Shown: one piece after another, positions 4,119 through 21,629 of the stretch | Position numbering within the stretch: position 1 is the first letter of the stretch | Layout: each line of letters opens with the position of its first letter | Source: a phage | Strand: one strand, 5' to 3' | NCBI GenBank assembly: GCA_014816185.1 | Contig: GCA_014816185.1_4095.1 | DNA: 64,000 nucleotides | Made by a program: the position numbers and the translations under genes | The notes under the pieces: generated by a model | Database searches by the model: none | What the model saw: the letters and a program-made list of their open reading frames with translations, nothing else | Told to the model about the DNA's origin: nothing

Positions 4119-4538
4119 ATGAAAACAATCAAAATTCATTTCAAAGACACTTGGACAGAAGTAAGTACTGGTAATATTCAGGATATTTTATATAGTACTG
4201 AAACTATTCATGTTTATGATGAAGAGACTGCTTCCGAGCAGTTAAAAGTTTTGCATCGTAGTGTTGGTGTGCACACTGAATATGGCATTAAACATACTCG
4301 TGAATTACTTAATACTAATCACATTGAAACCCGTAAAGCAAACTTATCAAAAGAAGAAATGTTCGATTTCATCCTGAACCATAAAGTTCATATTGAGCCT
4401 GATGGGTCTATATGGGAGAACACTGCTGGACAAAAAGTGCTGAAAAAATATCATGTTTCAATTGATAATGTAAAAATGTCAGGGTATGATTTGGAAGATG
4501 CAATTAATGAATATGTATCTAGGCAGAGGGCAAATTGA
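4119..4538 (+). CDS. hypothetical protein
   Basis: ORF in gene-dense plus-strand run. Confidence 0.55.
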   Translation: MKTIKIHFKDTWTEVSTGNIQDILYSTETIHVYDEETASEQLKVLHRSVGVHTEYGIKHTRELLNTNHIETRKANLSKEEMFDFILNHKVHIEPDGSIWENTAGQKVLKKYHVSIDNVKMSGYDLEDAINEYVSRQRAN

Positions 4539-12190: not shown

Positions 12191-13156
12191 GTGAAAAAGC
12201 TTGATTTAAATACAATTGCCGAAGAAGTTCTGGATGAATGTTTTGCTAATGAAGAAGTCAACACACTAGAAGCCTTAGATTTCGTTGAAGATAAAGATGA
12301 AAATGAAGGTAAAGTACAAAGCAGTTTCAAATATAATATTACACTTAAGCGACCACCAAATGTTTCCAATGAAGATCTAATTCGTGATATTCAAGCTGGT
12401 ATCAATGTAAAGAAAAACACTGAACTGTTAGTTCGTTACAATTATGGACTGATTATTGATGTAGCAAGTAAATGTACTTGTTATATCCCATTTGAAGATA
12501 AGATTTCATATGGTGTTGAGGGGTTCATGAGAGCACTAAAAACCTTTGATCTTAATAAGAATGTTAAGTTCATTACCTATGCTTCTTCTAGTATTTACAT
12601 GACAGTCTATAACGAAAGTTCTGACGCTAACTATATGGTACACTTCCCACGTTATATGAGTGTTCATAAGATCAAAGTAAAAAGATTCTGTCAGGAATAT
12701 ATGCGTAAACATGGTGTTCGCCCAACTCCTGAAATAATCTCAGAGGGTACTGGGATTGAGATTCAGCATGTTAATAATTGTTTGTTATTTCAAAGCGAAT
12801 ACACTTCGCTGGATGCACCATTAGACGGTGTTACAGATGGTACATTAGGTGACATTATTCATTCACCTGCTTCTGATTTTAACCTCAATGTTGATAGTAT
12901 CCGTGCACCTTTGCGTTATGCTATCAATGAACTGACCAACGAATTGAGTACTAAAGAACGTGAGATTATCCAGCGTGTTCATGGTCTAGGTGAATATGAA
13001 CCTGAAACGCTTCGTGAGATTACTGATAATGGTTTTGTTGATGATAATGGAAAATATGTTAAATCCCGTTCATCAATACACCGAAAGTACAGTGAAGCTA
13101 TGCAAAAGCTTAAGAAGTTAGTACTTGCAAAAGGGTACGAATACGAAGATTTCTAA
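12191..13156 (+). CDS. putative sigma70-family sigma factor
   Basis: GTG start with AGGAG SD; region-2-like segment LVRYNYGLIIDVASKC...GVEGFMRALKTFDLNKNVKFITYASSSI and region-4-like C-terminus; recognised by eye only. Confidence 0.5.
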   Translation: MKKLDLNTIAEEVLDECFANEEVNTLEALDFVEDKDENEGKVQSSFKYNITLKRPPNVSNEDLIRDIQAGINVKKNTELLVRYNYGLIIDVASKCTCYIPFEDKISYGVEGFMRALKTFDLNKNVKFITYASSSIYMTVYNESSDANYMVHFPRYMSVHKIKVKRFCQEYMRKHGVRPTPEIISEGTGIEIQHVNNCLLFQSEYTSLDAPLDGVTDGTLGDIIHSPASDFNLNVDSIRAPLRYAINELTNELSTKEREIIQRVHGLGEYEPETLREITDNGFVDDNGKYVKSRSSIHRKYSEAMQKLKKLVLAKGYEYEDF

Positions 13157-13164
13157 AGAACAAG

Positions 13165-13189
13165 GGTTGGCTTATGCCAACCTTTTTTT
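13165..13189 (+). terminator. rho-independent terminator
   Basis: GGTTGGC-TTAT-GCCAACC followed by TTTTTTT. Confidence 0.6.
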
Positions 13190-13714
13190 ATGGGATGAAG
13201 TAAAAGTTTGTGATATAATTATCTTGTACAATTCTGTTGGCATGATATTCATGTACCTGATCCACTCGAAAACGTAGAGGGCAGTTGAGCAGTCCGACAG
13301 TGCGAACAGCAAAAGAAACCCGTTAGATGTGGGCATAGTTTGAACCCCTCACGGCAATGCGGCTGTATAAAGAACCACGTTAGGATAGCTGGTGGTTCCT
13401 TGATAGACATATAAGGATAACACCTTACGAATTATCTAAGGGAGAGTTATCGAATTTTGTACAGGAAAGTTGCGTCCAAAATTTGAGTACTCACATTAAG
13501 TATTTGATTGCATAGATACTTAATGAAGATACACTATGTTTAAAAGTGTAGACCGTCATATGAAACTGAAGTAGAGAGAAACAGGATGACCCGCTTTCGC
13601 ACTCGTTATGAGTAATCTTCAATGCAATAGCTCTGATACCATCAGCGTCAAATTTCCCTCCTTGTGGGGGGGAAGAAAAATCCCTTCCTCAAATCCCGTC
13701 AATATTAAAAGTCC

Positions 13715-13743
13715 TTGACAGTTATTAATCATTCGCGTAGAAT
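13715..13743 (+). promoter_or_regulatory. sigma70-like promoter
   Basis: TTGACA - 17 nt - TAGAAT upstream of the 13808 gene. Confidence 0.5.
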
Positions 13744-13807
13744 ACGTAGTATTAGAAGCGAACAGACATCTCGAAGAGATGGATGATTAACCATTAAGGA
13801 ATATCCA

Positions 13808-14017
13808 ATGAATTCAGTAATCTTTTTAGTAATAGCTTTTTCTGTTAATTCCGGTGTACAAATAACCCCAATGAATTCCATGAATCAATGCATTGCATTA
13901 CGTGATAGTACATACGAACAAGTAAACAAAGATATTTGGATTACAGTTAGTAAAGAACAAATGTGGTGTTACAATAGTAATACTAAAGAGAAACTTATTG
14001 TGGGTCAAACTAAATGA
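13808..14017 (+). CDS. small protein with hydrophobic N-terminus
   Basis: AAGGAA SD. Confidence 0.55.
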   Translation: MNSVIFLVIAFSVNSGVQITPMNSMNQCIALRDSTYEQVNKDIWITVSKEQMWCYNSNTKEKLIVGQTK

Positions 14018-14244
14018 GTTATGGTGTTCGTTTTGAGATTCGTGCTATTGTTATCAATGACGAGAAACAAGCATCATTAGATGGTGATATACGAGAATTA
14101 TATCTATCATGTATCCGTGCAAAATCTGAAGCCGATGCATTAGCACAAATGTATGGTTTTAACTTTTTTCACGGATACCATTTGGTACGAGTTATCGAAG
14201 TTACAAAAATAATTATAGGTTGTAACAAAGAAGGAATAATATAA
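14014..14244 (+). CDS. hypothetical protein
   Basis: ATGA overlap. Confidence 0.55.
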   Translation: MSYGVRFEIRAIVINDEKQASLDGDIRELYLSCIRAKSEADALAQMYGFNFFHGYHLVRVIEVTKIIIGCNKEGII

Positions 14245-14245
14245 A

Positions 14246-15034
14246 ATGAGCACTATAGATGAATTGATTCGCCGGAATTCAAAATACTACAAACCATCAG
14301 AAATTGTAGGTAACATTACCAAATCAGAGTTTGGTCCAAATACTCGAAAACTCATTCATGTAATGTCACGTGATGGCTTTAAATGTGATTGTTGTGGTGA
14401 ATCCAATGTGGTATTCACTTTACATAAGCACAGTACTAAAGAACGTTATAAATTCAGACCTTATGTACTTAAAGGGAAACGCCTTGTACGCATGACGTTA
14501 GACCATAATGTACTTGACTGTCTTCAGGGCGGTAATGATAAAGAGAACATGACTGCACTGTGTGAAGATTGTAACGCATTACGCCAGCATAAGTTTGCTG
14601 AATACAGTGAGTTTAAACACTGGTATCATAACGCGGATCGTTCAATCGAGCCTGACGTTAACTACTGCTTCATTGAGTACATTAAGAATGCCAAAGATAC
14701 ATACATTCTTAAATCAATGTCACCTATTACCGTGTTTCCTGAGAACCTATTCACTACATTAAAGAATAGTTTTATTGTAGGTGATATTGATGCATTCAAG
14801 TATTTTGACAAAGGTGCAAAACATTTTGAAATTCAATGTCTTAGTACTGCACTATGTGAACTCATTAAAATTTACATAAAAGAGTATTTGGGTATTGACA
14901 ATGTACGTATACCAGAGTATACTTTTTCTATTGAATTCGATTGTGAATCAATCAAAGAGTTTGGAATTCTTTTCAATAAACAAATAGAACTTGCAATTCA
15001 AAACGAAATCAAGTACTATACTACTAACATTTAA
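14246..15034 (+). CDS. HNH endonuclease
   Basis: Cys-rich N-terminus (CDCCGE) and HNH-like motif LDHNVLDCLQGGNDKENMTALCEDCNALRQHK. Confidence 0.6.
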   Translation: MSTIDELIRRNSKYYKPSEIVGNITKSEFGPNTRKLIHVMSRDGFKCDCCGESNVVFTLHKHSTKERYKFRPYVLKGKRLVRMTLDHNVLDCLQGGNDKENMTALCEDCNALRQHKFAEYSEFKHWYHNADRSIEPDVNYCFIEYIKNAKDTYILKSMSPITVFPENLFTTLKNSFIVGDIDAFKYFDKGAKHFEIQCLSTALCELIKIYIKEYLGIDNVRIPEYTFSIEFDCESIKEFGILFNKQIELAIQNEIKYYTTNI

Positions 15035-15049
15035 TCAGAGGAAATTATC

Positions 15050-15232
15050 ATGCAAATTATCATTCTTATCGTTGGCATCATGCTGGGTGTTTACGGTCAC
15101 TCCTGGATGAACGAGAAGTTTCCTAATACGCGTCCTGAGTATTGCAGTTCTGATGTATTCCAGAATGGTGAGAAACCAAAGGAAAGCATTGGTAAAAAGC
15201 TGGATAAAGTACTTGATGTGATCAATGAATAA
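15050..15232 (+). CDS. small membrane protein
   Basis: SD GAGGAA; hydrophobic N-terminus. Confidence 0.5.
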   Translation: MQIIILIVGIMLGVYGHSWMNEKFPNTRPEYCSSDVFQNGEKPKESIGKKLDKVLDVINE

Positions 15233-21437: not shown

Positions 21438-21629
21438 ATGTTGATTTATCAAAGTGATAATATTCGTGTTATGCAGCATCCCTACTTACAAATCTTTGAT
21501 GTGCAGCAGTATATGGAAGGTGATGACCCAAGAACCTATGGTCGTAAGTATGATTACTTCACTGTAAAGCAGTGTAAAAATATTAACGAAGTACGACAAT
21601 TAGTTCAAGAACTTCAAAACAAAGGTTGA
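21438..21629 (+). CDS. hypothetical small protein
   Basis: Start moved to ATG after AAGGA; stop codon sits inside the terminator hairpin. Confidence 0.45.
   Translation: MLIYQSDNIRVMQHPYLQIFDVQQYMEGDDPRTYGRKYDYFTVKQCKNINEVRQLVQELQNKG

Follow-up and report, generated by a model that had tools for sequence, protein, structure and literature searches.

Free-standing homing endonuclease genes are numerous in large lytic phages. The repair nickase Vsr is a stand-alone protein that possesses a zinc site of its own and residues intercalating into DNA. The free-standing endonuclease genes of T4 are promoter-less cassettes that displace intergenic promoters and carry a promoter for downstream genes within their own coding sequence, an arrangement favouring their retention (PMC2988022). 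I-Bth0305I defines the EDxHD family, with the residues E170, D196, H213 and D222, and with N208 in place of Vsr H64 (PMC3239194). The T5orf172 homing endonucleases use a zinc-finger 'beads on a string' DNA-binding kit (Barth et al., PMC10448857), and in T4-like phages the mini-circle crossovers at PeSL elements fall between the -10 box and the Shine-Dalgarno sequence (SD) and ATG (PMC2839356; PMC4122927). Here we describe two nuclease genes, ORF1 and ORF2, in a 64,000-nucleotide (nt) stretch of phage DNA (contig GCA_014816185.1_4095.1, hereafter the window). We consider it probable that both are selfish genes of the free-standing homing endonuclease type, belonging to unrelated catalytic classes and caught at different stages of invasion, fixation and decay. 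ORF1 would be a Mob-like HNH gene, nearly fixed and stabilised by an embedded promoter-like site. ORF2 would be an EDxHD/Vsr-like gene of patchy distribution that recently came to occupy a nuclease hot spot with PeSL-like repeats at its borders. Both products are predicted to be active enzymes with target sites of their own, and their mobility would be nuclease-driven rather than passive.

By its sequence the window comes from an Asteriusvirus, the genus of the 121Q/PBECO4/G17 jumbo coliphages with genomes of roughly 350 kb. Megablast comparison against Asteriusvirus genomes revealed an identity of 96-99% around the ORF1 locus and a much patchier coverage around the ORF2 locus. The window has a GC content of about 35% (34.7%) and densely packed short open reading frames (ORFs). 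Neither ORF1 nor ORF2 lies within an intron or an intein.

The HNH protein ORF1

ORF1 (14246-15034, + strand) starts with ATG and encodes 262 residues, with an N-terminal Cys4-zinc HNH domain followed by a variable C-terminal half. The HNH (beta-beta-alpha-Me) catalytic core covers residues 40-120 approximately (14363-14605, +), and its motifs are ordered as C47xxC50...D86-H87...N101...C106xxC109-N110. The family comprises 93 proteins at E≤1e-3 among 1.84 billion representative proteins, with the similarity centred on residues 30-150. In an alignment of 39 members, the residues C47, C50, H87, G95, N101, C106, C109 and N110 are invariant, and T84 and D86 are conserved in at least 90%. As read from this alignment, the signature is that of a Cys4-zinc HNH protein of the CxxC...DH...N...CxxCN type. 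It includes the D-H general base, the structural Asn, the distal metal-ligand Asn/His and the beta-beta-alpha fold of the HNH superfamily, together with the CxxC...CxxC zinc site of the Pfam HNH/HNH_5 type.

Searched alone against Pfam, ORF1 scored below the thresholds of both HNH (15.7 bits, cut-off 21.4) and HNH_5 (15.1 bits, cut-off 27.5). At the level of the family, HNH_5 was found at E≤0.01 in 36 of the 39 members and HNH in 32. The matches in PHROGs were phrog_35175 and thirteen others labelled 'HNH endonuclease', and a sequence search of the PDB with ORF1 gave nothing useful. The C-terminal half is presumably a DNA-recognition domain.

Insertion, loss and an embedded promoter at the ORF1 locus

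ORF1 begins 1 nt past the stop codon of o76, a 76-residue ORF (14014-14244, +; phrog_28392, function unknown; no Pfam match), and is followed by o60, which starts at 15050. The gene lies inside a polycistronic run and has no terminator/promoter unit of the kind described below. A tblastn search detected ORF1 in about 30 Asteriusvirus genomes, always at the same conserved place; its alleles fall into two classes (96-100% and about 80% amino acid identity) which follow two species groups. RaK2-like jumbo phages infecting Yersinia, Erwinia, Serratia, Cronobacter, Salmonella, Pectobacterium and Xanthomonas have homologues with 26-42% identity. These distant homologues are often present in two copies per genome and are not syntenic; around the one in Yersinia phage fHe-Yen9-03, no homologues of the window neighbours of ORF1 were detectable.

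Three divergent Asteriusviruses, Turkey5, JNE01 and A4, have no functional ORF1. In Turkey5 and JNE01, the similarity to the window breaks off at about 14005 and begins again at about 15031, with the flanks aligning on both sides, indicating that the o76-ORF1 block (14006-15030) is precisely absent. It is replaced there by about 75 nt, which include a consensus TTGACA-17-TATAAT promoter feeding o60. In A4, o76 is retained and ORF1 is reduced to residues 181-258, the HNH half being deleted. ORF1 therefore shows the features of a Mob-type insertion, being intergenic between conserved genes with endonuclease-less alleles in existence. In addition, comparison with phage vB_Ec-M-J (MJ) yields a nucleotide identity of 96.4% over the HNH half and 76.6% over the C-terminal half, and the gene itself is therefore mosaic, as one would expect from exchange or rapid evolution of a specificity domain.

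The 3' end of ORF1 contains a sigma70-type promoter-like site, TTGACA-17-TATACT (14895-14923, +), which matches the consensus at 11 of 12 positions and is placed to drive o60 and the downstream genes. The site is a perfect consensus in the 3' end of the MJ ORF1 and in the A4 remnant, despite surroundings that are only 77% identical. Exactly one consensus-type promoter is found 110-140 nt upstream of o60 in every configuration (window, MJ, A4, JNE01 and Turkey5). Judged by pattern and position, 14895-14923 would function as the promoter of o60, and the locus has the Mob-type combination of a promoter-less cassette, a displaced intergenic promoter and an embedded promoter-like site. A promoter for downstream genes inside ORF1 would favour retention of the gene. 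The A4 remnant keeps the promoter-bearing segment, which suggests that the promoter rather than the protein is kept by selection. We propose that ORF1 and o76 arrived together between o69 and o60, as a block of two genes without a promoter, and displaced the promoter that lay in this intergenic space. ORF1 would now house the promoter of the genes downstream within its 3' end, an arrangement that would aid its retention, and would have become fixed in most of the genus.

The Vsr-like protein ORF2

ORF2 (33541-34659, +; 372 residues, ATG start) appears to be modular, with an N-terminal and central region ending in a CapR/DUF723/DUF4379-related zinc-ribbon, fused to a C-terminal nuclease domain of the putative EDxHD class. 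The zinc-ribbon module (treble-clef type; residues 185-245 approximately, 34093-34275, +) contains C219/H222/C224 and C241/C243/C244. The Vsr-like nuclease domain (residues 255-372 approximately, 34303-34659, +) contains E270, D285, E296/D298, H302, D320 and K323. Alignment with 22 relatives showed that C241, C244, E270, D285, E296, Y297, D298, G299, H302, D320 and K323 are nearly invariant; E270, D285, E296, D298, H302 and D320 are each conserved in at least 90% of the aligned relatives. The N-terminal two-thirds of the protein are highly variable. DUF4379 is a treble-clef zinc finger. In the region equivalent to the zinc-ribbon, Pfam identified DUF4379 in 12 of the 23 sequences, CapR in six and DUF723 in five.

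The AlphaFold model of ORF2 has a mean predicted local distance difference test (pLDDT) score of 80.5, and its C-terminal domain has the alpha/beta nuclease fold of Vsr, which Foldseek ranked first, if weakly. The spacing of 17 residues between D285 and H302 equals that between D196 and H213 of I-Bth0305I (PMC3239194). Therefore, E270, D285, E296/D298, H302 and D320 would fit the EDxHD catalytic pattern, with the assignment of the glutamate being the least certain. ORF2 itself reached no Pfam model, and DUF559 was touched by only one of the 23 relatives (E 0.008). No match was found in PADLOC, and NCBIfam was uninformative. In PHROGs, ORF2 matched phrog_559 'HNH endonuclease', phrog_9084 'homing endonuclease' (E 4e-16) and phrog_7140 'intron encoded nuclease'. 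Relatives of the zinc-ribbon and nuclease core were found in 350 phage records, mostly of large myophages of Firmicutes, and a few depositors annotated them as 'homing endonuclease EDxHD' or 'VSR endonuclease'. As regards the catalytic class, PHROG 559 and some GenBank records are in error in naming the ORF2 family 'HNH endonuclease'. GenBank/RefSeq records carrying this label include EcMJ_562 and RaK2.

The last 55 or so residues of ORF2 (residues 320-372, 34498-34659), DKIKTEYAI(N/K)NGYNFIRIAYYEDH..L.SFL.L....P.KQIVQIYGEVQI, are almost identical among relatives which share only 30-60% identity elsewhere, and exist in two sub-variants. The identity of this tail could be due to strong constraint or to repeated gene conversion of the 3' end with the adjacent unit.

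A first-pass annotation of the window, drawn from the sequence without database searches, had called an HNH motif in ORF1, and a Cys cluster with a Vsr/DUF559-like core in ORF2, both genes being free-standing. The frames of ORF1 and ORF2 are exactly as given there, and the motif columns of ORF1 are invariant or at least 90% conserved among the 39 members. In ORF2 the cysteines C219/H222/C224...C241/C243/C244 do precede the D285, E296-x-D298, H302, D320, K323 core, and the Vsr-like call agrees with the fold, the EDxHD residue pattern and the spacing. The domain searches it advised returned sub-threshold Pfam HNH hits and PHROG matches for ORF1, and PHROG nuclease matches without a Pfam hit for ORF2. 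The catalytic residues, on whose presence in an alignment the annotation had staked its call, are conserved in both proteins, and both genes are indeed free-standing.

Terminator/promoter units

A unit of about 50 nt, AAAGGGTTGACTTCGGTCAGCCCTTTTTGCTATAATnATTTCATCAAC, recurs at 31963, 33245 and 34659. Its 33-nt core, GGGTTGACTTCGGTCAGCCCTTTTTGCTATAAT, occurs five times in the window within 3 mismatches, compared with none in shuffled sequences. The unit is built of a hairpin, a T-run, a -35-like TTGACT within the stem, an 18-nt spacer and TATAAT, followed by the SD and ATG; the hairpin folds at -18.3 kcal/mol (z -5.1). The left unit (33245-33300, +; TTGACT at 33256-33261 and TATAAT at 33280-33285) is PeSL-like and is annotated as a terminator in G17. 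The right unit (34659-34715, +) has the TATAATC variant (C at 34700) which accompanies ORF2-type genes. A looser search revealed nine copies of the hairpin and promoter on the + strand between 21.6 and 34.7 kb (at 21626, 24869, 25052, 26394, 27479, 31974, 32557, 33256 and 34670). To judge from these features, the units may work like PeSL elements, outside the lineage in which the latter were defined.

With a nucleotide identity of 86-97%, a core of about 45 nt of the unit is also shared by jumbo phages that infect Klebsiella, Erwinia, Yersinia, Pectobacterium and Serratia, as well as by Vibrio phages of roughly 253 kb, where the match falls beneath an annotated DNA ligase gene.

The ORF2 cassette and the interval between DenV and the NTPase

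ORF2 comes second in a module of two genes, located in the interval between a DenV-type pyrimidine-dimer glycosylase gene (32032-32547) and a P-loop NTPase gene (34728-35498, +; 256 residues, phrog_1250), the latter being a conserved flanking gene outside the mobile module. The first gene of the module, p78 (33312-33548, +; 78 residues, phrog_34150, no known function), overlaps the ATG of ORF2 with its stop by 8 nt. Together, p78 and ORF2 form a 1.4-kb cassette flanked by two copies of the unit. Only G17, Sharanji and JP4 have this unit-to-unit stretch in intact form (98.8-99.9% identity), and ORF2 is 99.7-100% identical in these three only. The GC content is 29.3% in ORF2, 32.5% in p78 and 39.3% in the NTPase gene, with 34.7% for the window.

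The same interval is occupied in many ways among relatives, and units form the boundaries of every configuration, bracketing all slot modules. The window, G17, Sharanji and JP4 have gp219, a unit, p78 with ORF2, and a second unit. SP27 has gp218 and gp219 followed by one unit, and EC.P1 has one unit only. In vB_Ec-M-J, p78 is followed by an ORF2 orthologue at 60% identity, and in L019, L017, SHEFM2K and CRJP21 by other EDxHD-type nucleases whose N-terminal regions are unrelated. PBECO4, 121Q/UB, phAPEC6/slurp01, Turkey3 and WPEC3 carry nucleases of a different family, phrog_681. Altogether, at least ten other nuclease-type genes take the place of ORF2 in relatives. The first 32 residues of ORF2 are found at 84% identity in PBECO4 gp306, which has another catalytic end, indicating domain shuffling. 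A T5orf172/GIY-YIG identity was considered for PBECO4 gp306, 121Q gp221, phAPEC6 gp019 and WPEC3_125 on the motif 'DG(Y/C/W)(T/S)ET'; Pfam did not confirm it, and we assign them only to phrog_681, 'endonuclease'. The phrog_681 occupant of phAPEC6 is annotated as 'exonuclease ABC C subunit', at odds with the catalytic domain found.

Traces of gain, loss and replacement were found in several genomes. In WPEC3 (L010), positions 4154-4205 approximately (corresponding to 34608-34659 of the window) are a frameshifted 52-nt fossil of an ORF2-type 3' end, located before the unit and the NTPase gene. As the slot of WPEC3 holds a different nuclease, this fossil is direct evidence that a replacement took place. 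The SP27 junction is identical to the left unit of the window as far as CATCAAC and to the right unit thereafter, which places the crossover between the -10 box and the ribosome-binding site. Around this junction, only three bases set SP27 apart from the window: two synonymous changes in the last gp219 codons (33237 and 33240), and 34700. According to mismatch maps, the window matches G17 over 33028-35002 with 2 single-nucleotide polymorphisms (SNPs), beyond which the two diverge, the NTPase gene having 23 mismatches. With JP4 the agreement runs from about 33939 to 37900 (about 5 SNPs), p78 differing by 10 mismatches, and with the empty-site SP27 from 34701 to 37900 (2 SNPs). The same cassette thus lies in different backgrounds, and the same background occurs with and without the cassette, which is direct evidence of recent horizontal movement or loss, whatever its driver. 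A full-length ORF2 homologue of 44% identity was also found in a contig otherwise dissimilar to the window. Empty, occupied, fossil and replaced alleles of ORF2 are therefore all present among close relatives.

The comparison of insertion sites, by which the first-pass annotation had proposed to check its homing endonuclease candidates, thus revealed clean empty sites (SP27 for ORF2; Turkey5 and JNE01 for ORF1), decayed copies (WPEC3 and A4) and other nuclease genes in the place of ORF2, and supports the candidate status of both genes. The annotation had also put ORF2 immediately upstream of the NTPase gene, which is correct in its coordinates, and each of the two behind its own terminator-promoter unit. 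The units are real and the NTPase gene does follow the right one, whereas the left unit precedes p78 rather than ORF2.

For ORF2, we propose that the gene would be expressed behind p78 from the promoter of the left unit, with an identical unit following the module. In a mixed infection, ORF2 would cut a related genome lacking the module in or near the DenV-NTPase interval. Recombinational repair from the ORF2-bearing genome would then copy the module and some flank into the cut genome, the homology being supplied by the repeated units and the conserved flanking genes. The units might also permit loss and gain independent of the nuclease by unit-to-unit recombination, as for the PeSL elements of T4-like phages.

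Next to this interval, the gap between o95 and DenV (31964-32031) is an empty site for another nuclease. In JP4, vB_Ec-M-J, EC.P1 and WPEC3, the o95 homologue is separated from DenV by an HNH endonuclease gene of 414 nt (phrog_2255). UB retains a remnant of 195 nt there, annotated as HNH. The DenV gene itself exists in forms of 516 nt and about 435 nt.

The small gene p78

The gene p78 is single-copy and confined to Asteriusvirus, being 92-100% identical in 28 of 29 records and 81% identical in EJP2, and it is far better conserved than the genes after it. A large nuclease-type ORF comes after p78 in all of the intact genomes examined, either directly (usually with a stop/start overlap) or within 45 nt. 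Both p78 and the nuclease are absent from SP27 and EC.P1; p78 occurs without a nuclease only in the deletion-rich Salmonella SD phages, and WPEC3 has a nuclease without p78. Searches of p78 against Pfam, NCBIfam, PADLOC and, by sequence, the PDB gave no match. A p78 paralogue with a nuclease at L015 (P0016) looked like an independent second locus at which the two travel together; this argument was dropped because a gp219 homologue lies upstream there, which makes L015 the same left-hand neighbourhood, as it occurs in a divergent relative.

p78 could be a partner of the nucleases, or merely a conserved gene after which nucleases insert. A bolder proposal, which we regard as unlikely, is that the DenV-NTPase slot is a dedicated nuclease exchange site, in which p78 partners interchangeable nucleases of two unrelated catalytic superfamilies (EDxHD/Vsr-like and phrog_681) and the units serve as recombination handles. 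If so, p78 could be a targeting, regulatory or self-immunity subunit translationally coupled to the nuclease that follows, and modular shuffling of the PeSL type would extend to RaK2-like jumbo phages.

Alternative explanations

Several observations weigh against homing by ORF1 and ORF2. The junctions of the ORF2 cassette lie inside direct repeats, so that repeat-mediated recombination alone could explain its gain and loss. Polymorphisms tracking occupancy were sought in the flanks (the NTPase allele and the SP27 junction), and from these no target or immunity site could be deduced; free-standing endonucleases may cut hundreds to thousands of bases from their own gene (PMC2988022). No nuclease was found in the PDB by sequence at E≤10, either with ORF2 or with the profile of its relatives, and with no Pfam hit either, its membership in the class depends on fold and motif. 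The C-terminal half of ORF1 was modelled poorly (pLDDT 30-70), and owing to this low confidence no fold can be assigned to it. Finally, the presence of ORF1 at one site in nearly the whole genus would also fit a useful resident gene. It is conceivable, though in our view unlikely, that the nucleases are passengers, either with a different role (for instance, cutting the DNA of competitors or of the host) or with none, and that PeSL-type recombination between units and ordinary homologous recombination produced the patterns. The position of the ORF2 module between direct repeats and of the SP27 junction in the PeSL mini-circle crossover zone (PMC2839356) would be expected in that case, each slot allele is bracketed by units, the non-nuclease modules gp218 and gp219 of the same interval are likewise unit-bounded and variably present, and no target or immunity difference is distinguishable near the SP27 junction. 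However, the slot holds almost nothing but nuclease genes, from at least two catalytic families, an enrichment unexpected under neutral shuffling, and relatives carry further HNH genes in the neighbouring intergenic gap. ORF1 shows the same series of empty, decayed and occupied alleles without any flanking units, and the catalytic residues of both proteins are conserved. Moreover, passive shuffling and homing are not mutually exclusive.

For ORF1 alone, a domesticated HNH protein useful in DNA processing, repair or packaging, inherited vertically and secondarily lost, would account for its single position in about 30 genomes, the two allele classes tracking two species groups, the homologues throughout RaK2-like jumbo phages and the place within a polycistronic run without a unit of its own. 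We find this quite unlikely, as ORF1 is dispensable in Turkey5, JNE01 and A4, is internally mosaic (96% identity in the HNH half against 77% in the C-terminal half), and has distant homologues which are non-syntenic and often duplicated; the A4 remnant, too, suggests selection on the promoter rather than on the protein. Functional coupling of ORF2 with the NTPase, which the first-pass annotation had rightly called speculative, is not supported, because the NTPase gene occurs without ORF2: it directly follows a unit in SP27 and EC.P1, and lies beside unrelated nucleases elsewhere. That the two form a two-component nuclease/NTPase defence or anti-defence system is highly improbable. The genes are adjacent on the same strand, and the NTPase has a weak, sub-threshold similarity to STAND/AAA families. 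Yet they fail to co-occur in SP27, EC.P1 and many other genomes, and a terminator/promoter unit separates them. The NTPase allele does not track ORF2 either, being 100% identical in the window, JP4 and the empty-site SP27 and only 97% identical in G17, which has the same ORF2. PADLOC gave nothing for ORF2 and only P-loop noise for the NTPase, as did NCBIfam. The reading of ORF1 and ORF2 as homing-endonuclease-type selfish genes remains the one we prefer.

Other features of the window

A search within the window for second copies of ORF1, ORF2, p78 or the NTPase gene found no paralogue. The window also contains a tRNA gene (837-909) and a phage sigma factor gene (12191-13156). The latter is unusually divergent between allele classes, with 68.6% DNA identity to vB_Ec-M-J, and its protein is 57-74% identical to those of Turkey5, JNE01 and A4, compared with 90-98% for genes a few kb away. 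Between the sigma factor gene and o69 lie 650 nt without genes (13157-13807), which are better conserved than their coding neighbours: the identity to vB_Ec-M-J is 90.9%, compared with 68.6% for the sigma factor gene and 83% for o69, and 13298-13487 matches Pectobacterium phage CBB at 85.6%. This stretch has a terminator at its start (13162-13185) and a promoter-like site at its end (13715-13743). A search against Rfam and folding revealed no family and no significant fold (z only -1.4). It may be an unannotated non-coding element.

Downstream of the NTPase gene, six tandem ORFs of 104-122 residues (35566-37609) have overlapping or abutting starts and stops and hydrophobic, apparently membrane-spanning products. 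The first two are clear paralogues (77% identity over 83 nt), and the copy number of the array differs among relatives, PBECO4 and phAPEC6 being one member short. The sign of the GC skew flips near 38-39 kb, at the switch of the coding strand.

Comparison with known systems

Both genes were already labelled as nucleases by the depositors of sister genomes, and the finding is ordinary in kind, with a bearing on the mosaicism of jumbo-phage genomes and on annotation quality rather than on a new kind of system. Similar to the T4 Mob proteins (mobA-E) and other T-even free-standing endonucleases (PMC2988022), ORF1 combines an HNH domain at its N terminus with a distinct C-terminal region. Its gene likewise is an intergenic promoter-less cassette in a polycistronic message, with a displaced promoter, a replacement inside the gene and alleles lacking the cassette. 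It differs in being found in Asteriusvirus and not in Tevenvirinae, in having no detectable homology to Mob proteins beyond the HNH core, and in coming with the small upstream ORF o76.

ORF2 is compared most closely with the I-Bth0305I/EDxHD family, which includes Hef of T4-related phages (PMC3239194, PMC2988022). Unlike the intron-encoded I-Bth0305I, ORF2 is free-standing; its DNA-binding region is not of the NUMOD/HTH kind and ends in a CapR/DUF723/DUF4379-related zinc-ribbon, and an extra, highly conserved tail of about 30 residues extends past the core. The I-Bth0305I structure (3R3P) has no significant sequence match with ORF2, and E. coli Vsr and DUF559-type proteins (1CW0, 3HRL) share 8-21% sequence identity with it. 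In contrast to E. coli Vsr, ORF2 is phage-encoded, multidomain and located in a mobile cassette. With the T5orf172 endonucleases and the 'nuclease genes at boundaries of genetic exchange' (PMC10448857), the ORF2 relatives share the CapR/DUF723-type DNA-binding kit, the domain shuffling between nuclease genes and the position of nuclease genes at mosaic breakpoints. In ORF2, however, the kit is joined to an EDxHD/Vsr-like catalytic domain.

The units resemble PeSL elements (PMC2839356, PMC4122927) in combining a stem-loop terminator with a near-consensus sigma70 promoter in about 50 nt, in being repeated many times within a plastic region, where they border indels and replacements, and in the crossover between the -10 box and SD/ATG. 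PeSLs were defined in T4-like myoviruses, whereas the units belong to a RaK2-like jumbo lineage (Asteriusvirus), have the -35 hexamer in the hairpin stem and are nucleotide-conserved in their core across jumbo phages of several host genera. The present analysis corrects the class of ORF2 from 'HNH' to Vsr-like/EDxHD, and it adds to the known systems an embedded-promoter arrangement like that of T4 in an unrelated phage lineage and PeSL-like regulatory repeats outside the T4-like phages. As empty, occupied, fossil and replaced alleles of one slot are found in culturable coliphages, homing by an EDxHD enzyme is directly testable there by simple crosses.

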